Below are positions 4,829 to 31,733 of a stretch of 64,000 nt of DNA, piece by piece. The notes under the pieces were generated by a model. That model did not search any database. It worked only from the letters and a program-made list of their open reading frames with translations, and was not told where the DNA came from. How positions within the stretch are numbered: the stretch's first letter is position 1; each line of letters begins with the position of its first letter. This stretch comes from Candidatus Nomurabacteria bacterium (GTDB lineage: Bacteria; Patescibacteriota; Minisyncoccia; Phycocordibacterales; UBA918). The position numbers and the translations under genes were made by a program. The stretch is taken from positions 4,855 to 68,854 of the forward strand of contig JACKGG010000005.1 in NCBI GenBank assembly GCA_020632035.1. Reading direction: 5' to 3'.

Positions 4829-5034
4829 TCATGCTGGCTAAATTTTTAGTAATAGTTATATGTGGAGTAATATTTGCCTATTTTGCCAACCTCGCTTTCC
4901 TTGGTGAGCTCTAGACAAAAGTAGAAAAAGCCGGTATTCTAGCGTTGTTCGTGGGTGGTCAACCCGAAAGGGCCGGCCACCTTTCTCATTTAATAGAAGA
5001 AGCCACGAAGCAGTTTTATTATTATTTATTATTT

Positions 5035-6816
5035 ATGTCACAAGAAATTAGAAATATCGCTATAATCGCTCACGTAGACCATGGTAAGACTACTCTTACT
5101 GACGGTCTCATGGAATTCACTGGTTCTCGTGAAGGCGACGCCTCAATGGATAATAATGCGCTTGAACAAGAGCGTGGTATCACTATCTACGCGAAAAATA
5201 CTTCTGTGACGTACAAAGATACTAAGATCAATATCGTTGATACTCCTGGTCACGCCGACTTTGGTTCTGAAGTAGAACGAGTGCTTCGATCGATTGATTC
5301 TGTACTTTTAGTGGTTGATGCCCAAGAAGGCCCAATGCCACAAACCCGTTTTGTACTTAAAAAGTCTCTAGAACTTGGTTTGAAGCCGATTGTGGTTATT
5401 AATAAGATAGACAAGCCAGCCGCAGACCCGGATCATTGTGAAGAGCTGGTGCTAGAACTTTTTCTAGAGCTTGGAGCCTCAGATGAGCAGTCTAGCTTTC
5501 CTGTAGTGTACGCAATTGGACGTGACGGCGTAGCTAAGCGCAAGATGGAAGATGAGTTGGTAGACTTGTCACCGGTATTGGATACTGTTCTAGAACATGT
5601 TGCACCTGCTAAGGGTTATGTGGAAGATGAAGCATTGCGGGCTCAAGTATTCAACCTTGGTTATGACAACTTTCTCGGTAGACTAGCTGTTGCTCGAATT
5701 TACGATGGTAAAATTGCAAAAGGTCAACAAGTTTTGATAAAAGCAGAAGGTGAAGAAATCAAAAAAGGTAAAGTCGTTAAACTTTCTGGTTATGAAGGTG
5801 TCCGTCAGGTAGAAATAAACGAAGCTTTTGCCGGAGACATTGTCTTGATTGCTGGATTAGAAGACATAAATATTGGTGAAACTATCACCGACAAAGAGAA
5901 TGCCGAAATTCTTCCAGCAATTTCAGTTGATGAACCTACTGTAGGAATGCAGTTTTTAGTAAACTCGTCACCATTTGCTGGTCGAGAAGGGAAGTACGTT
6001 ACCTCTCGTCAAATTGGGGAACGTCTTGAAAAAGAAATGGAAATTAACGTAGGACTTCAAGTAGAGCGCCAAGGTGACGTCTACGATGTGTACGGACGCG
6101 GGGAAATGCACATTGCAATCCTATTAGAAAATATGCGCCGAGAAGGCTATGAACTCTCTGTTTCTCAGCCGAAAGTAATTATTAAGGAAATTGATGGTGT
6201 AAAGTCAGAACCGTTTGAAGAAGTCACCATCGATATTCCTTCAGAGTTTCAGGGTCCTGTTATTGAACGTCTATCAAATCGAGGTTTCATTATGCAAAAC
6301 ATGGTACCGCACGAAAACCAAGTTCGACTATTATTTGAAGGACCAACTAGAGGACTCCTAGGTTATAAAAACCAGTTTATTATTGACACAAAAGGGGAAG
6401 GTATTCTAGCTTCACGCTTCATAGAGTTTCGAAAATACGTTGGCGAAATCAAAAAACGGCAAGTTGGTTCAATGATTTCAATGGCGACAGGAAAAGCACT
6501 TGGTTTCTCACTTTTTGGCCTACAAGACCGAGGAGAGTTATACATTGGAGCTGGAGAAGAGGTGTACGAAGGAATGGTAATTGGTAATACTAGTAAGGGT
6601 GAGGAAATGACAGTTAATCCAACCAAAGGAAAGCAACTTACAAACGTACGGGCCTCTGGTAGCGATGATGCTATAAACTTAGTGCCACACCGACCTCTTT
6701 CGATTGAAATTGGTCTCGAAATTATGCAGATTGATGAATACTTAGAAGTTTGTCCAAAATCAATCAGATTGCGGAAGCAAGGCTTAAAAGAGAGCGATAG
6801 AAAGAAAACGAAGTAA
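5035..6816 (+). CDS. typA: translational GTPase TypA/BipA
   Basis: '[19 protein letters not shown]' is the G1 motif and 'DTPGHADF' is G3. The length and C-terminal domain are TypA-like. The start was moved from the track's 4945 to the Met at 5035 to match the canonical N-terminus. Confidence 0.9.
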
Positions 6817-19514: not shown

Positions 19515-20636
19515 ATGAGTCCAAAACTTAAAGGATTAGACATTCTGCAAAAGATATCAATGTCTCTGATGGGTGTGCTGGTGCTTATTACTTTTATTGG
19601 TGCCAATCTACAAGCTCTAACATGGCAGTCTTCAGACTGGCTAGTTTCAACAGTTTTGCCAGCCGTTGTCGTTGAACTTACTAATGAAGAACGTACCGAC
19701 AACTTGGCTCAGCCATTACAGCGTAATGTCACTCTTGACGCTGCAGCAAAAATGAAAGCTCAACACATGGCCAAAAATCAATACTTTGCACACTTTAGTC
19801 CTGATGGTGTTTCACCCTGGTACTGGTTTGATGAAGCTGGTTATGTTTACGCCCACGCTGGAGAAAATCTGGCAATTCACTTCACAGATTCTTCCGAAGT
19901 GGTTGAAGCTTGGATGAACTCTCCAACTCACCGTCAAAACATTGTAAATGGTCTGTATACTGAAATCGGTGTCGGTACTGCTAAAGGTAAATTTGAGGGT
20001 TATGACACTGTATATGTCGTCCAACTTTTTGGTACACCAGCTATACCGCCAGCACCAGTACAGCCAAAATCACTAGCCGTAGCAACTCAACCTCAACCTC
20101 CAGTAGTTGTGCCTGAACCTGAAATAGTACCTGAAATCATCCCCGAAGTAACTGTTGAACCAGCCGAGACAGTCCTTGCTCAGTCTGAAACTGCTGTTTC
20201 TGGACCAGAACCTGAACGTATCTCAGAGGAACTATTTTCTGATAATTCTAAAACTGAACTAACTGAACTAACTGTCGAGCCGGAGCAGACAGTGCCAGAA
20301 AGTATGGCTGTGGCAGAAAGCGAACCTGAGGTCGTAGTCATTGAATCACCAGTTATATCTACTTCATCTGGCCTAGCGGTGGCGCAGATCGATACTTATT
20401 CACCAACTCATGCAGGAGCGACGATTGCTTCAGTGGTAACTCAACCTAATGTTTTATTGCAAATTATCTACTTTGTACTGGCCGTTGCAGTTGTGTTGAT
20501 GCTTGGAACCTCAATCGTACTAGAGGCCCGCCGAATGCGACTCCAGCAAGTTGCTTATGGTCTCTTATTGTTATTTGGTATGGGAGGCTTGTGGTTTATA
20601 AATTCACTGCTCACCACCGGAGCAGTAGTGGTATAA
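19515..20636 (+). CDS. CAP/SCP (PR-1-like, YkwD-type) domain protein with Pro/Glu-rich linker and C-terminal TM anchor
   Basis: The CAP motifs 'HFSPDGVSPWYW...GENLA...WMNSPTHRQNI' are present. A repetitive PEPE/ELTELT linker precedes two C-terminal hydrophobic helices. Confidence 0.7.
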   Translation: MSPKLKGLDILQKISMSLMGVLVLITFIGANLQALTWQSSDWLVSTVLPAVVVELTNEERTDNLAQPLQRNVTLDAAAKMKAQHMAKNQYFAHFSPDGVSPWYWFDEAGYVYAHAGENLAIHFTDSSEVVEAWMNSPTHRQNIVNGLYTEIGVGTAKGKFEGYDTVYVVQLFGTPAIPPAPVQPKSLAVATQPQPPVVVPEPEIVPEIIPEVTVEPAETVLAQSETAVSGPEPERISEELFSDNSKTELTELTVEPEQTVPESMAVAESEPEVVVIESPVISTSSGLAVAQIDTYSPTHAGATIASVVTQPNVLLQIIYFVLAVAVVLMLGTSIVLEARRMRLQQVAYGLLLLFGMGGLWFINSLLTTGAVVV

Positions 20637-20722: not shown

Positions 20723-21169
20723 ATGAAAGAAAAAACCACTACTGTATTATCTGTATTCCCTGCCACACACTCAAAAAAACTTCACTCACAACCACTTTAC
20801 GTTAGTCAACCAGCGGCTGGTTTTCCTTCCCCAGGCGATGATTTAGTAGAAAAAGCCTTGGATCTAAACGATTTACTGGTCGAGAATGAAAGCGCGACAT
20901 TTTTTGTGCGAGTGAGCGGTGATTCTATGGAGGGTGCCAAAATCTTTGATGGAGATATTTTGGTGGTAGACCGCTCCGTGGAAGCCCGGTCCGGACACAT
21001 CGTAGTCGCGGCTGTCTATGGCGAACTAGTAGTTAAACGTCTTTTGAGCAAGGGCAACAAACTTTTTTTAATATCTGAAAACGATCAATATAAACCTATT
21101 CAGATAGATGAAACCGAAGGATGCTTCATCTGGGGCGTAGTAACTGGTAGTGCTAGGGTAATTTTGTAA
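20723..21169 (+). CDS. umuD: UmuD-like S24 peptidase (LexA/UmuD family, no HTH)
   Basis: 148 aa with a candidate autocleavage site A-G in 'QPAAGFPSPGDD', catalytic Ser in 'SGDSMEG' and Lys in 'LVVKRL'. There is no N-terminal DNA-binding domain. Confidence 0.7.
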   Translation: MKEKTTTVLSVFPATHSKKLHSQPLYVSQPAAGFPSPGDDLVEKALDLNDLLVENESATFFVRVSGDSMEGAKIFDGDILVVDRSVEARSGHIVVAAVYGELVVKRLLSKGNKLFLISENDQYKPIQIDETEGCFIWGVVTGSARVIL

Positions 21170-21173
21170 GAGT

Positions 21174-22397
21174 ATGACTGTCCCAGCGTCTACGATGAAT
21201 ATGGTATTAAACAAATCGGCTTTTTTTCTCAACTTTTATATTGCAATTATCCTGTTAGGGTTCTTTTTTGTGCCAGCAGTAGCTCAAGGTGCCAGCCAGG
21301 ATGTGGGTGTCTGGATTCCTTGGTGGACAGAAGAAGCTGGTACAGAAAGTGCTTTAGAGCATATTAAAGATATAGATATAATTTACCCATTTGTGTTTGA
21401 AGTTAATTCAGATGGTTCACTAAAGAATAGGGTAAATTTTAAAGATGATCACTGGGAAGAGCTGTTTGATAAAGCCGACGACGATCGAGTAGACATTATC
21501 CCTACGGTTGCTTGGTTTGATGGTGACGCTATACACAAAATCTTGAGTAGTAAAAGTTCACGCAAGAAACATGTAGATGAGATCGTTAAAATGGTTAATA
21601 AGTATCGCTTTGATGGAGTAAACATCGATTATGAGTCTAAGTTAGGAGAGACTATCGATTATTATTCTGATTTTCTTAAAGAGCTAGAAGACGCGCTTGG
21701 TCGCAAAGATTTGACTTGTACTATTGAAGCTCGTACTCCGCCAGACTCACGTTGGAAGGAAGTGCCTGAGGTGATCAAATATGCCAATGACTACAAAGAA
21801 ATGAACAAGTACTGTGATTGGGTCGAAATAATGGCCTATGACCAACAACGTGCAGATTTGAAGCTAAACGACAAGCGAAAGGGAGTGCCATATATGCCGG
21901 TGGCTGATACTGAGTGGGTAGAAAAGGTGGTTGAACTAGCCTTAGAGGATTTTGATAAAGATAAAGTAATGCTTGGAGTGGCTACTTATGGACGCGCCTG
22001 GGACGTTACTGTTGCTCCAGAATGGTACAGAGACTATAAGCAAGTAGCAGCTATAAATCATCCTAGAATCTTAGAGCTTTCAGAAAAATACAATTCCCCT
22101 ATCGGTCGCACCGAAGGAGGAGAGGCTGTAATAAGCTATTTCCCTGAAGATTCGGTTTGGAAGATATTTAATGCGCTGCCAACACCTGTCGGTACACCAA
22201 AGGGATTCGAAGCAGCTGCAAAAGCGCTCTTAGTGGCTACGTATGCAAAGGTGGAGGTGCCAGTTAGAGTCATTATCTGGAGTGATGCCGAGGCGATAGA
22301 AGAAAAACTAGATCTAGTTAAGAAATACGACCTCAGAGGCGTTGCCGTATTTAAGGTAGATGGTGAAGAAGATTCTAAAATGTGGAAGCTATTTTAA
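21174..22397 (+). CDS. secreted glycoside hydrolase family 18-like protein
   Basis: A signal/anchor helix is followed by the GH18 catalytic motif DxxDxDxE as 'FDGVNIDYE', with Tyr where the usual DxDWE has Trp. The start codon lies 5 nt after the umuD stop. Confidence 0.6.
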   Translation: MTVPASTMNMVLNKSAFFLNFYIAIILLGFFFVPAVAQGASQDVGVWIPWWTEEAGTESALEHIKDIDIIYPFVFEVNSDGSLKNRVNFKDDHWEELFDKADDDRVDIIPTVAWFDGDAIHKILSSKSSRKKHVDEIVKMVNKYRFDGVNIDYESKLGETIDYYSDFLKELEDALGRKDLTCTIEARTPPDSRWKEVPEVIKYANDYKEMNKYCDWVEIMAYDQQRADLKLNDKRKGVPYMPVADTEWVEKVVELALEDFDKDKVMLGVATYGRAWDVTVAPEWYRDYKQVAAINHPRILELSEKYNSPIGRTEGGEAVISYFPEDSVWKIFNALPTPVGTPKGFEAAAKALLVATYAKVEVPVRVIIWSDAEAIEEKLDLVKKYDLRGVAVFKVDGEEDSKMWKLF

Positions 22398-22448
22398 GTA
22401 ACCAAGAAATCAACAATCATTATCTCCTTGTTTTATCTTAGAAAACTT

Positions 22449-22472
22449 TAAGTTCGAATCCTGCCACCGGAG
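22449..22472 (+). repeat. copy A of a 24-27-bp direct-repeat family (AAGTTCGAATCCTGCCACCGGAG)
   Basis: Intergenic, 52 nt after the GH18 stop. It shares AAGTTCGAA..TCC..CACC..GGAG with copies B and C. Confidence 0.5.
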
Positions 22473-22602
22473 AATTTAAGTTTTAGCCGCCAAAGAGGCA
22501 CGAATTTTATTATGTTACTTTGCTTACTATACAACAGGATAGTTATAGAGTATAACTTCCGCATGTTCTTTTTAGTAATTTTCAGACATGAAGGGGTGTG
22601 AA

Positions 22603-23088
22603 ATGCAAAAATTAAACATTAAATACAACTCAGAGGATTGGAGGGGCGCTGTTTTGTCTAATTTGGCCACCACCCCTTTCTCTGTCGCAGGTTTTGACTT
22701 TCTGTCTGTGGAAAGTGCTATTCAGGGCATAAAGTTCCACAGTAAGAACGAAAGAGAGTCGGTATTTAGAATGACCGGCATGGATGCCCTTAAGGCTGGA
22801 CGCCCAATAACAAACTCAATAAGTGAAAGGGTAGAGTCTTTCGTGTACTGGGAAGGGCAGGAGTTTCCTTATAACTCAATGGATCATCGTCTGCTTCTCG
22901 CCATGTTTATTGGCGAGAAAGTCAGACAGAATCCAAACGTACAAGAAGCTCTCTTGGCAACTGACGGGACCTTTATTTACCACGATGTGGGGGAAGAGAA
23001 CCCCAACACTTCTTTGCCGGAGAAATTCTATATCCAAATACTACTTGCTCAAAGAAGCTTGCTGGCTCGACTTAGGAATATTTCCTAG
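22603..23088 (+). CDS. NADAR-like (YbiA-type) domain protein
   Basis: 'FSVAGFDFLSVESAIQGIKF' can be compared with E. coli YbiA 'FSNF...TSEHYFQAQKF', and 'LLATDGTFIYHDVGEENPN' with YbiA 'LLATAPAKLVEHTENDAYWGDG'. The SD AAGGGG sits 7 nt upstream of the ATG at 22603. Confidence 0.45.
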   Translation: MQKLNIKYNSEDWRGAVLSNLATTPFSVAGFDFLSVESAIQGIKFHSKNERESVFRMTGMDALKAGRPITNSISERVESFVYWEGQEFPYNSMDHRLLLAMFIGEKVRQNPNVQEALLATDGTFIYHDVGEENPNTSLPEKFYIQILLAQRSLLARLRNIS

Positions 23089-23112
23089 TTTGCTAATTTC
23101 TCACCAAGATAG

Positions 23113-23145
23113 ACAAGGCTGTCCGTAAGGACGGCCTTTCTTTTT
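23113..23145 (+). terminator. rho-independent terminator
   Basis: GGCTGTCCG-TAA-GGACGGCC followed by TTTCTTTTT. Confidence 0.55.
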
Positions 23146-23183
23146 ATACAAAGTTGACACCTTTAGAGGTGAGTTTGAAACTT

Positions 23184-23224
23184 TGTAGTGTTGTATTGAC
23201 ATTGTCACTACATAACTTATTATA
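23184..23224 (+). promoter_or_regulatory. promoter with overlapping inverted-repeat operator upstream of the relB/dinJ-yafQ pair
   Basis: The inverted repeat TGTAGTG (23184-23190) / CACTACA (23206-23212) brackets -35 TTGACA (23196-23201). The -10-like ATTATA (23219-23224) lies 7 nt before the ATG, implying a near-leaderless transcript. Confidence 0.4.
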
Positions 23225-23231
23225 GATACAT

Positions 23232-23507
23232 ATGAATTCACAAGAAACAATTCAAATTAGGATTGATGCCAAAACTAAGAAAGCAGCTAGGAAGACTCTA
23301 GATGAGCTAGGATTAGATATGTCTAGTGCTGTTAAGCTATTTTTAACTAATGTGGTAAACAGAAAAGGTATACCTTTTGATCTGCGGACTGAGAATGGGT
23401 TCACCTTGGCTCAAGAGCAGGCTTTAATAGCTGAGACAGAGGTAGCAAAGAAGACCGGTAAGAGTTTTAGTGATCTTGATGAACTTTTTTCAGATTTAAA
23501 ATTGTAG
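23232..23507 (+). CDS. relB: RelB/DinJ family antitoxin
   Basis: 91 aa. 'IQIRIDAKTKKAARKTLDELGLDMSSAVKLFL' is a ribbon-helix-helix DinJ/RelB signature. Confidence 0.75.
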   Translation: MNSQETIQIRIDAKTKKAARKTLDELGLDMSSAVKLFLTNVVNRKGIPFDLRTENGFTLAQEQALIAETEVAKKTGKSFSDLDELFSDLKL

Positions 23508-23509
23508 TC

Positions 23510-23791
23510 GTGAAGTATTCAGTACACTACACTACACGCTTTAAAAAATCCCTTAAGCGTGCAAAACAACTGCCTGCTTTCAAGTCAGAAAAACTTAAGG
23601 AGGCTATTTCAATTTTGGCACATGGTAATAGTCTTCCTCCAGAATTTAAAGACCACCGACTTACTGGAAACATGAAAAAGTTTAGAGAGTGTCATTTAGC
23701 TCCGGATATTATTCTTATCTATGAGACAGACGATGGAATTCTAATCCTTACTCTTGTTAATATCGGTAACCATTCTCAGTTGTTTAAATAA
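23510..23791 (+). CDS. yafQ: YafQ/RelE-family mRNA interferase toxin
   Basis: 93 aa with a GTG start 3 nt after the antitoxin stop. 'YTTRFKKSLKRAKQ' and 'KDHRLTGNMKKFRECHLAPDIILIY' match the YafQ/RelE fold signature. Confidence 0.75.
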   Translation: MKYSVHYTTRFKKSLKRAKQLPAFKSEKLKEAISILAHGNSLPPEFKDHRLTGNMKKFRECHLAPDIILIYETDDGILILTLVNIGNHSQLFK

Positions 23792-23792
23792 G

Positions 23793-23819
23793 TTCGAACA
23801 TCCTTCACCCAGCGGAGCC
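23793..23819 (+). repeat. copy B of the direct-repeat family (TTCGAACATCCTTCACCCAGCGGAGCC)
   Basis: It begins 2 nt after the yafQ stop. It differs from copy C at only 2-3 of 27 positions. Confidence 0.55.
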
Positions 23820-23904
23820 AATTGAAATACCCGTATTTTACAGGGATGTTTTTTATTACCTGAAATCGATATCGAACTTTTTGTGACTATTGTAATAAAA
23901 ATAT

Positions 23905-23932
23905 TTGACTTCTTATTTTTAGTATCTATAAT
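23905..23932 (+). promoter_or_regulatory. sigma-70-like promoter (-35 TTGACT, 16-bp spacer, -10 TATAAT)
   Basis: TTGACT is at 23905-23910 and TATAAT at 23927-23932. The predicted TSS at about 23939-23940 coincides with the uORF ATG. Confidence 0.45.
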
Positions 23933-23939
23933 CAAGTAA

Positions 23940-24011
23940 ATGACTAATAAATATCAATTCAACACTTGGTGGACTGCTTGGAGAAACGGGCAGTGGTGTT
24001 TTTGTATTTAA
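23940..24011 (+). CDS. candidate leader peptide MTNKYQFNTWWTAWRNGQWCFCI (23 aa; 4 Trp including a WW pair)
   Basis: The ATG at the predicted TSS indicates a leaderless mRNA. Four TGG codons fall in a 30-nt stretch of an AT-rich genome. GGGCAGT (23988-23994) inside the uORF can pair with ACTGCCC of the downstream terminator's 5' arm. Confidence 0.3.
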   Translation: MTNKYQFNTWWTAWRNGQWCFCI

Positions 24012-24040
24012 TAGTGATTATTCTCCATTAAGTGAAAAAT

Positions 24041-24064
24041 AACTGCCCTCAAGGCAGTTTTTTC
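24041..24064 (+). terminator. intrinsic terminator / attenuator 27 nt upstream of the oxidoreductase start
   Basis: AACTGCC-CTCAA-GGCAGTT followed by TTTTC. The upstream GGGCAGT can form an alternative, mutually exclusive helix with the 5' arm. Confidence 0.5.
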
Positions 24065-24090
24065 TTATAAATCTAAAAATTAATTAAAAT

Positions 24091-25071
24091 ATGAAAACAA
24101 TTAAAAAAACGGACGTGGTAATTATTGGAGCGGGATTCTCAGGGCTTTATTTGGCACATCATTTAGTAAAGGTTGGTAAACGTGATTTCCTCATTGTTGC
24201 GCCCGATATGCAAGCTGTGAGTGACAAGTCATACTTCAATATCAGGTCTAGGGGGGTAAAGCAGACTTCGTTAAAAGAATCTATGAATGTCGCAAGTTAC
24301 GGTATGAGCAACAGACAGTTAGTTAATGTGCTCGTTAACAATATTGATGATGAACTTACATACTTAAGTCATATAACGAAAATGAAACCATCTTTCCTTG
24401 GTGCAATTGTAGCAAGGCCTAAATCGTTGATGAACAAGATACGTAAGGAATCAATCCACAACAGGGTATATGCGGAGGTGTCTTCAGTTAAAAAAAGACA
24501 TGGATACGTAGAAGTCATAACAACTGAAGGTAAGATTCATTGCAAGAAGGTTGTATTTTGCTTCGGTGGTTTAAGAGCGAGATTGTCAGAAAAGTTTGTT
24601 GATGAGAAGGTTAAGAATAACCTTTTTAAGGCTGCTAAAGATGTTGGTTGTGATGTTTTGTATCAAGACCTGGTTATGAAGCATCCTTTCTACTCAAAAG
24701 GTGTCTGCATTCCTAGTGATGATTTGTATAACTTTGATTTCGTTGATGATAAGGAAAAACGTCTTGAGTTAACACATCACTTAGTTAGGGCACATAATGC
24801 CCATCATAGGTTTGATGATATTTGCAAAGAATATCAGAGGACAATAAAGCGCTACGCAATAAATAGAGATAAAATAATTGAATTGGATATAGAGCCTCAT
24901 TTTGTCTTGGGTGGAATAAAGATAAACAGAAGAGGAGAGACAAAGGTAAAAAATGTTTATGCTTTAGGAGAATGCGCTTATGGCATGCATGGCAAAGGTA
25001 GATTAGGAGGTGGTTCCATCGCAGAAATTCTCGTTATGTCTAGAGTGGTTGCAAAACAGATTATTGGTTAG
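24091..25071 (+). CDS. FAD-dependent oxidoreductase (short NadB/FrdA-like flavoprotein)
   Basis: The N-terminal Rossmann motif is 'DVVIIGAGFSGLYLA'. The C-terminal 'ALGECAYGMHGKGRLGGGSIAEILV' resembles the C-terminal FAD-binding motif of L-aspartate oxidase and succinate dehydrogenase flavoproteins. Confidence 0.6.
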   Translation: MKTIKKTDVVIIGAGFSGLYLAHHLVKVGKRDFLIVAPDMQAVSDKSYFNIRSRGVKQTSLKESMNVASYGMSNRQLVNVLVNNIDDELTYLSHITKMKPSFLGAIVARPKSLMNKIRKESIHNRVYAEVSSVKKRHGYVEVITTEGKIHCKKVVFCFGGLRARLSEKFVDEKVKNNLFKAAKDVGCDVLYQDLVMKHPFYSKGVCIPSDDLYNFDFVDDKEKRLELTHHLVRAHNAHHRFDDICKEYQRTIKRYAINRDKIIELDIEPHFVLGGIKINRRGETKVKNVYALGECAYGMHGKGRLGGGSIAEILVMSRVVAKQIIG

Positions 25072-25086
25072 TGCCTACGATATAAG

Positions 25087-25113
25087 TCCGAACATCCACC
25101 ACCCAGCGGAGCC
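25087..25113 (+). repeat. copy C of the direct-repeat family (TCCGAACATCCACCACCCAGCGGAGCC)
   Basis: It lies between the oxidoreductase stop (25071) and the umuC start (25139). Confidence 0.55.
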
Positions 25114-25138
25114 TAAGTTAGCTTGCTATAATACTTTT

Positions 25139-26389
25139 ATGAACCCTTCCTTGATTGGACTTTTGGATTGCAACAATTTTTTTGTATCGTGTGAAAGACT
25201 GTTCCGACCGGATCTAATAGGGAAGCCAGTGGTAGTGCTGTCCAGTAATGATGGTTGTGTAGTAGCTCGATCGAAAGAGATAAAGGACATGGGTATACCA
25301 ATGGGTGTCCCTTACTTTCAGATAAAGGACATTTTAAAAAAAGCTGATGCCGTAACGTTTTCTTCGCACTTTTCTTTGTATCGAGACATCTCAAAAAGAG
25401 TGTTTTCTGTCATGCACAAAGAACTTGGTTTTATTGAGCAATATTCGATAGATGAAGCTTTCTTTACTGTAAGTTCAGGAGCAGAAGAAGTCGCACATAA
25501 CTTAAAAAGAGTGATTGAAAAACAAGTAGGTATCCCAGTTTCAATTGGCTTGGCACAAACAAAAACTCAAGCAAAATATGCTAATTCAATAGCTAAAAAG
25601 GGCACAGGGGTCTGTGCCCTAAGGTTGTCTGATTGGCAGGCTATAGCTAAAGATATTCCCCTAGCTAGTATCTGGGGCGTCGGCGGAAAAACGGAGCTTT
25701 TATATAAAAAACACGGTCTTGAAACCGTTGCGGATTTTATTGTGTTGGATCAATCTAGAGTGGCTAGTTTATTTGGACTGTCTGGCATTAGACTACAACA
25801 AGAATTGATCGGTAATCCAGTGTTTTCGGTTGAACATAAAGTATCTACCCAACAAAGTATTTTGAGCTCAAGATCTTTTTCTGAGACGGCTACAGATTTG
25901 TCTGTTTTGGCTGATGCAGTGGCTTACCATGTGCGTCACGCCACTGCTAATTTGAGATCCTTGGGATTGGAGGCAGGTAAGATCAGAGTCTCGATTCGGC
26001 CGAGTAGACACAGTGATTTTATGCTTCGTGGGGGCTCTAAAGAAGCCTTTATGATTGCTCCTACTGCTGATTCTATATCATTGCTCAGAGTAGCAAACGA
26101 TCTCTTAAAAGATCTGCATGAACCGGGCGTACCCTACAAAAAAGTGGGTGTCGTGTTGTCTCTATTCAGCCCAGTAAACCAAGGACAAACTACGCTTTTT
26201 CCAGACGATACTAAAGTCAAACATGACACGCTGATGTCATTGGTGGACAGCCTTAATACTAAGATAAAAAAAGAATCAGTGTTACTAGGGTCGAGATTGT
26301 TAAGTTCGGCTTGGCAAGCAAAGAGTGAAGTGTGTTCACCGAGCTATACGACTAACTGGTCAGAGGTGGTAATAACTAAAGCTCAATAA
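25139..26389 (+). CDS. umuC: Y-family DNA polymerase, UmuC-like (Pol V catalytic subunit)
   Basis: 'GLLDCNNFFVSCERLFRPDLIGKPVVVLSSNDGCVVARSKEIKDMGI' matches the Y-family N-terminal palm motif. The 417-aa length is UmuC-like. The start was moved to the Met at 25139. Confidence 0.85.
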   Translation: MNPSLIGLLDCNNFFVSCERLFRPDLIGKPVVVLSSNDGCVVARSKEIKDMGIPMGVPYFQIKDILKKADAVTFSSHFSLYRDISKRVFSVMHKELGFIEQYSIDEAFFTVSSGAEEVAHNLKRVIEKQVGIPVSIGLAQTKTQAKYANSIAKKGTGVCALRLSDWQAIAKDIPLASIWGVGGKTELLYKKHGLETVADFIVLDQSRVASLFGLSGIRLQQELIGNPVFSVEHKVSTQQSILSSRSFSETATDLSVLADAVAYHVRHATANLRSLGLEAGKIRVSIRPSRHSDFMLRGGSKEAFMIAPTADSISLLRVANDLLKDLHEPGVPYKKVGVVLSLFSPVNQGQTTLFPDDTKVKHDTLMSLVDSLNTKIKKESVLLGSRLLSSAWQAKSEVCSPSYTTNWSEVVITKAQ

Positions 26390-31412: not shown

Positions 31413-31436
31413 AACCTGACTAGTGTCAGGTTTTAT
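31412..31436 (+). terminator. rho-independent terminator
   Basis: AAACCTGAC-TAGT-GTCAGGTTT followed by TAT. Its 3' half is the first bases of the tandem repeat unit. Confidence 0.55.
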
Positions 31437-31708
31437 CTGGTGCCGACGAGAGTCGGCAATCACCGTTGTGAGGCTTAATGCCGAACAGGTGATAGGAGGG
31501 CACCAACTCTGTCCTCGGCACTTACGCTGCGAATTGGCTATGTTCGTCCAGATTGACTAGTGTCAGGTTTTATCTGGTGCCGACGAGAGTCGGCAATCAC
31601 CGTTGTGAGGCTTAATGCCGAACAGGTGATAGGAGGGCACCAACTCTGTCCTCGGCACTTACGCTGCGAATTGGCTATGTTCGTCCAGATTGACTAGTGT
31701 CAGGTTTT
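31418..31708 (+). repeat. 137-bp GC-rich unit in exact tandem, 2.1 copies
   Basis: Unit starts are at 31418, 31555 and 31692, and the third copy ends after about 17 bp. The first two full units look identical by eye. The unit has no ORF longer than 6 codons and contains several internal helices (see findings). Confidence 0.8.
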
Positions 31709-31733
31709 ATCATAATTTTAGTTCTGCGTAATC

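Follow-up and report, generated by a model that had tools for sequence, protein, structure and literature searches.

In a 64-kb window of a Candidatus Nomurabacteria contig (JACKGG010000005.1; the window is the whole stretch of DNA that was analysed, and all positions without a locus number refer to it), a block of genes lies between a GH18 gene and umuC and carries three copies, A, B and C, of a short site. These copies are boundary sites of a gene-cassette block with three or four units, and we are highly confident that they are homologous to the boundary sites of cassette arrays anchored at tRNA-Asn genes in other genomes (the comparison loci of this analysis, given below as L-numbers). The features of the block and its flanks are as follows:

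19515-20636, CAP-domain protein (Pfam)
20723-21169, Peptidase_S24 protein, UmuD-like (Pfam)
21174-22397, + strand, GH18 gene, left flank outside the array (Pfam, synteny)
22450-22472, + strand, copy A, an A-type site, AAGTTCGAATCCTGCCACCGGAG, 52 nt past the GH18 stop (22397)
22473-23150, + strand, cassette 1, with a NADAR / phage gp30.3-like gene at 22588-23088 (Pfam PF08010, E=2e-18)
23115-23138, + strand, intrinsic terminator of cassette 1 (terminator scan)
23151-23173, + strand, possible decayed fourth site, AAGTTGACACCTTTAGAGGTGAG (read from the sequence, low confidence)
23174-23789, + strand, cassette 2, with relB (23232-23507) and yafQ (23510-23791) (Pfam RelB, YafQ_toxin)
23196-23223, + strand, promoter of cassette 2, TTGACA-16-TATTAT
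23790-23819, + strand, copy B, a B-type site, core GTTCGAACATCCTTCACCCAGCGGAGC at 23792-23818
23820-25083, + strand, cassette 3, with a FAD-dependent oxidoreductase gene at 24091-25071 (Pfam FAD_binding_2, Pyr_redox_2)
23905-23932, + strand, strong promoter of cassette 3, TTGACT-16-TATAAT
23973-23994 and 24041-24059, + strand, terminator-like hairpins in the leader of cassette 3 (scan)
25084-25113, + strand, copy C, a B-type site, 12 nt past the oxidoreductase stop (25071) and 25 nt before the umuC ATG (25139)
25123-25132, + strand, native extended -10 of umuC, TTGCTATAAT (alignment to L064)
25139-26389, + strand, umuC (Y-family polymerase), right flank (Pfam IMS, IMS_C, DUF4113; synteny)

All three copies lie on the + strand at the ends of consecutive gene units, as the initial annotation of this DNA had it, and the consensus of B and C has two matches in the window, B and C themselves, with none in 100 shuffled versions. 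Three of 30 positions distinguish copy B from copy C, within the two or three differences counted initially, and each of the three copies has TAAGTY directly on its 5′ side. Copy A was present where it had been placed, with its start moved by one base, from 22449 to 22450. Copy B had been described as lying 2 nt past the yafQ stop; its core stands directly after the stop codon (23789-23791), and the first two bases of the whole copy fall within that codon. This copy ends in GCCA and is followed by a hairpin with a T-run (23830-23854). A profile built from 27 related copies and run on the window with nhmmer found only B (E=3e-13) and C (E=3e-10).

Each cassette of the window has a promoter and a terminator of its own in our scan. 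The unit made of a leader and the oxidoreductase gene stands as first drawn; the NADAR and relB/yafQ genes, initially taken as one unit, are probably separate cassettes. With low confidence, the decayed site at 23151-23173 would part the NADAR-like unit from relBE: its place, behind a terminator, a T-run and ATACAAA, is typical of the sites; it was not reported by nhmmer at E ≤ 10 and has no statistical support. The leader of the oxidoreductase gene (~150 nt) has two hairpins with ACTGCC/GGCAGT in common and looks like an attenuator; the region 23905-24090 matched no Rfam family.

The resemblance of the repeats to the T-loop and acceptor end of a tRNA, first noted as faint, is exact for copy A. 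In L016 and L017, tRNA-Asn(GTT) genes end, letter for letter, in the 21-mer GTTCGAATCCTGCCACCGGAG of 22452-22472, so that the kinship of copy A with B and C proposed initially is not a matter of chance. A scan of viral contigs with this 21-mer gave two matches, both at tRNA-Asn(GTT) 3′ ends, and it differs from the tRNA-Asn 3′ ends of Patescibacteria at 1-4 bases. The tail of copy A can be read as T-loop, 3′ strand of the T-stem, 3′ strand of the acceptor stem and discriminator G, and a tRNA matching it would start with UCCGGUG, the tRNA-Asn pattern. On alignment to tRNA-Asn genes only the last 21-22 nt, from GTTCGAA onwards, are kept, with TAAG and not the T-stem standing 5′ of them; judged by this alignment, copy A is a 5′-truncated tRNA-Asn 3′ end.

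Every site corresponds to a segment of tRNA-Asn that starts at the T-loop and ends with the discriminator plus C74. Copy A has the site in its tRNA version (22 nt), and B and C are a 27-nt variant, GTTCGAA-CATCC-TCCACCCAGCGGAGC. In comparison with the tRNA end (GTTCGAA-TCCTGCCGCCGGAGC), the 27-nt core has five extra bases after GTTCGAA and another acceptor sequence; the blocks GTTCGAA, TCC and GGAGC are common to all site types. Copy A and other A-type ends are thus copies of a tRNA 3′ end, and B and C are not. ARAGORN and Rfam called a single tRNA gene in the window, a tRNA-Ser at 2699-2785, and none at copy A; an Rfam search of 22380-25140 gave nothing even at E ≤ 1. The tRNA-Ser was rejected as a source of the sites, as its 3′ end does not match them. 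The string CCACCGGAGCA at 20614-20624, inside the CAP gene, was judged a chance match of 9-11 nt in a conserved core gene.

The 27-nt core of the family, GTTCGAACATCCTCCACCCAGCGGAGC, was derived from 87 distinct copies; its information content falls sharply at both edges, and the 27-mer is nearly invariant across Patescibacteria. With one genome per GTDB species, the 25-mer common to B and C was found at 14 loci, 13 of them labelled Patescibacteria (Saccharibacteria, Paceibacteria/Paceibacterota and Parcubacteria) and the 14th a 2.6-kb contig binned as a cyanobacterium, and a slightly relaxed 22-mer was found in 42 metagenome contigs. A phage or plasmid source of the 27-mer was rejected for the absence of matches in IMG/VR, INPHARED (GenBank phages) and the PLSDB plasmids. 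The 27-mer is better conserved across classes than are the tRNA-Asn ends of the same genomes, which argues for selection on the site itself. On the 5′ side of the sites we often saw the terminator of the preceding gene and an A/C-rich stretch (...TTTTATACAAA); on the 3′ side, 51 of 93 sites have a hairpin with a T-run within 55 nt and 11 of the 93 have a TTGACA promoter box.

In the profile search the sites formed same-strand arrays of 2-10 copies with a spacing of 0.03-6 kb (median ~1.3 kb), the smallest unit between two sites being 27 nt. The arrays begin at the 3′ end of a tRNA-Asn gene, either intact or containing a group I intron. A tRNA-Asn gene was seen at 19 loci, called by ARAGORN at 11 (L005, L010, L011, L013, L030, L037, L039, L046, L048, L053 and L058) and split by an intron at eight (L002, L008/L026, L014, L021, L022, L025, L044 and L052); in 18 of the 19 it lies upstream of the array on the same strand, L021 being the sole exception in orientation. 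For example, in L046 the tRNA-Asn gene at 220-293 is followed by ten sites within 8.4 kb. The genes 5′ of tRNA-Asn are core genes (def-fmt, HPF, glutaredoxin, DUF167). A search of related genomes for the motif, as suggested initially, placed its copies in arrays and not behind scattered housekeeping genes, nor was the motif absent elsewhere; the outcomes that were initially said to refute a mobile boundary thus did not occur.

Cassettes follow the order of an optional hairpin, promoter, gene or genes, terminator and site, and their cargo is almost never common to two arrays. The cargo genes are accessory: glycosyltransferase (GT4), ice-binding protein, MsrAB, APH, ATP-grasp and histidine phosphatase genes were seen, as well as hydrolases, a type I restriction enzyme, a reverse transcriptase, a UvrD-like helicase and toxin-antitoxin pairs. 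Among 100 open reading frames (ORFs), 75 run with the sites and 25 against them. The GC content of two cassettes, L009:4937-5455 (0.53 versus 0.46) and L010:1425-1937 (0.51 versus 0.41), is 7-10 points above that of the locus, which suggests cargo from foreign, higher-GC donors. A 424-aa reverse transcriptase (RVT_1) cassette, present at L027:1658-2932, L042:1282-2556 and L054:9200-10474 and also in L051, ends directly at a B site beside a type I restriction R subunit gene; it probably encodes a defence-type reverse transcriptase, and no group II intron was found by Rfam at the cassettes of L027, L042 and L054.

Several Patescibacteria tRNA-Asn(GTT) genes have a group I intron in the anticodon loop (Rfam 58-85 bits; ~500-912 in L002 and ~3881-4310 in L008/L026). 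A small ORF with weak HNH similarity adjoins the intron-bearing gene in L002, L014, L021, L022, L044 and L052 and, given this co-occurrence, is probably a homing endonuclease. At one place an earlier paper (PMC8172020) mentions, in passing, group I introns in tRNA genes of the Candidate Phyla Radiation (CPR).

To locate the joins, all pairs of sites were compared by their flanks, and the clearest cases were confirmed by BLAST. There were 33 pairs with similarity of the upstream flank only (16 of them pairs of true tRNA-Asn genes); at B-type sites and at a longer element described below, homology ended right after GGAGC. Eight pairs were similar in the downstream flank only, and two of these join a tRNA-Asn end to a B-type site. 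L030 and L033 are 99.4% identical over 5416 nt, with a 5.3-kb block that lies 3′ of tRNA-Asn in L030 and, in L033, 3′ of a 27-nt site that has another cassette on its upstream side. Identity between L027 and L042 is 99.7% up to the end of the site, and the sequences are unrelated beyond it; for L019 and L031 it is 100% up to that point, again with unrelated sequence beyond.

The 3′ edge of the site (...GGAG C|) is thus where homology breaks. A cassette starts directly after one ...GGAGC and reaches as far as the following one, cassettes move as units, and the tRNA-Asn end and the 27-mer are interchangeable as left partners of the same cassette. Because the join is at its extreme 3′ end, the tRNA stays intact. 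The two site types have only blocks of 6-7 nt in common; therefore homologous recombination cannot explain the exchanges, and we infer site-specific recombination. Of the readings offered in the initial annotation, the att-like or cassette-boundary one fits these data, the 27-nt family delimiting shuffled cassettes 3′ of tRNA-Asn in many Patescibacteria.

Many of the related arrays contain a further element of ~135 nt, with the layout 5′ GCTCCGNCGG-AGAAAG-hairpin-TTTCGTCAGGATTCGAAAAGC ... ACTG-hairpin (TGTAA loop)-CGAAACTCCTGCCGYCGGAGC 3′. Its ends pair like the acceptor stem of tRNA-Asn, CAGGA/UCCUG pair like the T-stem, and the T-loop is ~85 nt larger; RNAalifold predicted 24 pairs, 15 of them with compensatory changes. 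The element had no match in Rfam at the gathering thresholds or at E ≤ 10. A covariance model detected 43 copies in the loci (e.g. L030:1554-1692; L053:129-263, 4872-4998, 5945-6079 and 6120-6255; L009:4694-4830 and 5966-6096) and none in the window or its syntenic relatives. All 34 copies checked for strand run with the array, and 19 of 28 begin 32-47 nt past the preceding site, just after a terminator-like hairpin.

An A-type site forms the end of this element, and L004, L019, L034 and L036 contain A-type fragments that are its 3′ ends. In L019, L034 and L036 the downstream sequence diverges right after the GGAGC of the element, which is therefore a cassette boundary as well. One subtype has a 3′ end (TGTAAGATTCGAATCC...) that copy A (TTTAAGTTCGAATCC...) resembles; the remainder of the element is not in the window. 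The 135-nt element may act either as RNA or as folded single-stranded DNA, in the manner of attC.

The arrival of the block in the window was traced through the contexts of seven UmuC homologues (60-66% identity) at 13 loci, L060-L072; the UmuC protein of the window itself has an exact entry in NCBI, labelled Candidatus Nomurabacteria. The order CAP - Peptidase_S24 - GH18 - slot - umuC - downstream genes is kept at these loci, and the window block from A to C is missing from all 13, with no A, B or long-element site at any of them. The UmuD-like and UmuC genes are natively split by GH18, and the spacer between GH18 and umuC is a variable slot: it is empty in L061, L062, L064 and L072, holds a NUDIX gene in L063, L065 and L066 and two small ORFs in L067-L070, and is filled by a He_PIG protein gene in L060. 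The idea that cassettes had split a umuDC operon is then only partly true, since relatives natively have the order S24-GH18-umuC and it is the slot between the last two genes that the array occupies.

In L064, 67 nt separate the GH18 stop from the start of umuC. Directly 3′ of copy C the window reads TAAGTTAGCTTGCTATAAT...ATG, which can be aligned with this empty site (TAAGTGGTTTTGCTATAAT...ATG), and therefore the inserted block stops exactly at the last base of copy C. The TAAGTT at the left junction (22449-22454) is repeated at 25114-25119, directly 3′ of copy C, so that a 6-nt direct repeat flanks an insert of 2,665 bp (22449-25113); the repeat may be microhomology with the left edge of the site or a target duplication. 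By this synteny comparison the A-to-C block is an ectopic array segment in the variable GH18-umuC slot, and the window array may no longer be active. In L009, a more distant genome with a UmuC 47% identical, another array occupies the same slot in the opposite orientation. The relBE cassette of the window recurs in the L007 array (79% and 72% aa identity), where it is flanked by degenerate site remnants only, ~75 nt 5′ of the promoter (a shortened site, AAGTTCCTACCAGCGGAGC) and ~110 nt 3′ of yafQ.

Two other features of the window were observed in passing. A perfect tandem duplication (31417-31711; 137-nt unit, 2.15 copies) lies in the spacer before an HSP20 gene, a spacer that is far shorter in relatives. 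At 33932-57382 stands a giant ORF that encodes 7,816 aa and has internal repeats; its position is held in relatives by proteins of 3,600-6,600 aa with DUF2341 and Ig-like domains.

A search for an enzyme that could move the cassettes gave no candidate. All-against-all BLAST of 439 ORFs revealed no recurrent recombinase candidate, and Pfam found no integrase, resolvase or transposase family with two or more members among the 150 largest ORFs of the loci; nor did Pfam reveal a linked recombinase in some 40 other ORFs that were taken one by one (~190 in all). Searches with phmmer (--max) of the six-frame translated window and 58 loci, with E. coli XerD, IntI1 and gamma-delta resolvase as queries, gave nothing at E ≤ 1 (the control, XerD against IntI1, gave 7e-24).

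Three genes of the loci were considered for the role and rejected. A Y1_Tnp gene (IS200/RAYT-like, 223 aa) lies inside the L053 array at 5199-5870 and belongs to a family with many members in CPR, most of them on contigs of very small size. The homologues of three further genomes (10001-10672 in L073, L075 and L077) have no tRNA-Asn, B or long-element site within 10 kb, and every copy has its own inverted GGGGACAGGGACAAT repeats, several upstream and one or two downstream. We rejected it because its homologues stand away from arrays and have inverted GGGACAGGGACA repeats of their own; the family looks like a REP/RAYT-type system of its own, and the arrays failed the test for an IS200/IS605 or REP/RAYT (Y1 HUH transposase) system. 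The reverse transcriptase cassette is one cargo among many, beside a type I restriction-modification gene, and the HNH-like ORF family beside tRNA-Asn goes with the group I intron.

We consider it probable that the cassettes are exchanged by conservative site-specific recombination at the GGAGC edge, carried out by a recombinase that is not linked to the arrays. Cassettes would be excised and inserted with the tRNA-Asn end in the role of attI and the 27-nt site and the 135-nt element in the role of attC; the crossover would fall at the extreme 3′ end, never damaging the tRNA, and the recombinase would be encoded elsewhere in the genome and act in trans. Several observations weigh against this model, the main weakness being the missing enzyme, as no recombinase is linked to the arrays. 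The 27-nt consensus has no dyad symmetry typical of the core sites of tyrosine or serine recombinases (its inverted arms are only GTTCGAAC and CTCC/GGAG). Folding of the sequence around copies A, B and C was no stronger than that of shuffled versions, whichever strand was taken (z from -0.9 to +1.6), and attC-like hairpins at them were rejected on this ground. We saw no circular intermediates and no empty/filled pairs within one strain, and exact-match scanning of 185,579 species representatives gave just 14 with the site. In the window itself no tRNA-Asn gene adjoins the array, and the block joins its left flank at the start of copy A (TAAGTT microhomology), not after GGAGC as in the joins seen elsewhere; therefore the window insertion may have used the left edge of a site and may have come by another route.

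Among the other explanations, integrase-bearing elements (prophages or elements like integrative and conjugative elements, ICEs, integrative and mobilizable elements, IMEs, or tycheposons) could have accreted in tandem in the tRNA-Asn 3′ end and decayed, leaving the sites as attR scars. Such a history would account for arrays that start at tRNA-Asn, for direct repeats related to its 3′ end and for the identity of copy A and other A-type ends with the tRNA, and scattered partial tRNAs are known in the tRNA-linked islands of Prochlorococcus (10.1101/2020.12.28.424599). We find it unlikely nonetheless: the 58 loci contain no integrase or integrase fragment, the units are regular and very small (down to the 27 nt given above), and identical cassettes are re-used in new contexts with boundaries exactly at the site edge. 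The B site, moreover, is no tRNA copy and yet is conserved across classes above the tRNA-Asn ends, and it is missing from viral and plasmid collections. Somewhat less credible still is the idea that the sites and long elements are a transcribed, tRNA-like punctuation (for RNase P/Z processing, 3′-end formation or stabilisation), with shuffling as a by-product. The tRNA-like acceptor/T-stem stack of the 135-nt element with its compensatory pairs, the 75% of co-oriented cassette ORFs, the hairpin and T-run after 51 of 93 sites and the GCCA end of copy B all agree with it. However, the short sites A, B and C lack a 5′ partner strand and any fold beyond that of shuffles, many sites stand downstream of the terminator of the cassette itself, 25% of the cargo is on the other strand, the motif is confined to arrays and not spread over the genome, and the tRNA end and the B site swap partners precisely with only short blocks in common. 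A generic terminator or processing signal and a protein-binding site, both listed in the initial annotation, are not favoured; an added RNA-level role may exist.

Exchange could also proceed without a dedicated recombinase, by natural transformation and RecA-mediated homologous recombination between repeats, as in the minimal mobile elements of Neisseria. The lack of a recombinase linked to the arrays and the 6-nt microhomology bounding the window block speak for this, as does the natural competence that is reported for Patescibacteria. The site, though, is only 27 nt long and has sharp edges with no graded flank homology, and A-type and B-type sites exchange despite having only GTTCGAA and CGGAGC in common, which makes the explanation very improbable in our view. 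As for a regulatory protein-binding site, such as a SOS/LexA-type box serving the umuDC-like cluster, copy C does lie 25 nt 5′ of umuC and contains CGAAC, and a Peptidase_S24 gene (UmuD/LexA-like) is nearby. Yet the same site flanks unrelated genes in dozens of tRNA-Asn arrays, it has no second half-site, and relatives with the S24-GH18-umuC cluster lack it; with the motif missing in syntenic relatives, the reading is effectively refuted and retains next to no probability.

The recombinase-in-trans model invites comparison with integrons. Integron attC sites are imperfect palindromes of 57-141 nt (R″-L″...L′-R′) that fold in single-stranded form, and GTTRRRY is where their crossover occurs; the IntI tyrosine recombinase is encoded beside attI, and a cluster of attC sites lacking an integrase is called a CALIN. 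Integron cassettes are mostly promoterless, co-oriented and expressed from Pc. Like integrons and CALINs, the present arrays consist of small, mostly single-gene, diverse cassettes in direct orientation, each ending in a recombination-type site; they include toxin-antitoxin cassettes, homology breaks at the distal site edge, cassettes move as units, many arrays have no integrase, and cassette sites can change places with the anchoring site, in this case the 3′ end of tRNA-Asn. Unlike them, the sites are conserved in sequence (27 nt) and not in structure, with neither an imperfect palindrome nor GTTRRRY, and no IntI-type integrase lies beside the arrays in the window or the 58 loci. Each cassette comes with its own promoter and terminator, a quarter of the cassettes are inverted, a tRNA gene acts as the anchor and the hosts are Patescibacteria. 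The tests for an integron thus failed: IntI, a folded attC and a GTTRRRY box were all missing, and promoters were part of the cassettes. The 135-nt element, like attC, folds, but it is tRNA-like and missing from the window.

The arrays also share features with tRNA-linked islands, such as tycheposons or those built by accretion of cis-mobilizable elements (CIMEs) and ICEs: the array stands at the 3′ end of an intact tRNA, repeats are related to that end, successive units are pushed distally, and the cargo is adaptive or defensive. Integration at the 3′ part of an intact tRNA was seen in 18 of 19 related loci and not in the window, where tRNA-Ser is the only tRNA. The differences are that no integrase or replication module lies in or beside the 58 loci, that units are far smaller and more regular, that the dominant repeat is a 27-mer other than a tRNA copy, and that the tRNA-like 135-nt element is additional. 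The tycheposon islands of Prochlorococcus are tRNA-linked, with partial-tRNA repeats (10.1101/2020.12.28.424599).

In a third system, the Xer-dependent pdif modules of Acinetobacter plasmids, to be seen with other elements that exploit Xer recombination, two inverted 11-bp arms flank a 6-bp spacer and sites alternate in orientation. The modules are small, as here, and often carry toxin-antitoxin or resistance genes, the conserved sites are short (~28 bp) and the recombinase acts in trans; in contrast, the sites described here have no dyad symmetry, are all direct and have no link to plasmids. A full-text search of the literature, with the motif string included, gave no description of the arrays.

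A broader reading, which we put forward tentatively as a possibility, is that the arrays are a gene-capture platform specific to the Patescibacteria lineage, analogous to integrons and built from other parts: tRNA-Asn docking, a 27-nt mimic, the 135-nt element, an unlinked recombinase and foreign GC-rich cassettes. Docking would take place at the 3′ end of the tRNA-Asn gene. As cassette sites there would be the 27-nt mimic of the tRNA end and the 135-nt element keeping the acceptor/T-arm stack, the latter perhaps recognised as a folded single strand, like attC. The recombinase would be possibly of a new family or a co-opted housekeeping or tRNA-binding enzyme, and some GC-rich cassettes would come from foreign (host?) DNA.

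The 27-nt site can serve as a search key for arrays and their cargo (toxin-antitoxin, restriction-modification and reverse transcriptase genes) and is a defined starting point for seeking a new recombinase by phylogenetic profiling; the 135-nt element, without an Rfam family, is a candidate new RNA or folded-DNA motif. The arrays probably break many assemblies of metagenome-assembled genomes. In the few cultivable Saccharibacteria, the site could serve as an integration site for genetic tools. Patescibacteria have tiny genomes and, in the prevailing view, few mobile elements; the means by which they acquire accessory and defence genes are poorly understood. If the interpretation is true, the tRNA-Asn cassette system would be a concrete mechanism for such gain, common to Saccharibacteria, Paceibacteria and Parcubacteria, and a second, independent example of integron-style cassette capture.

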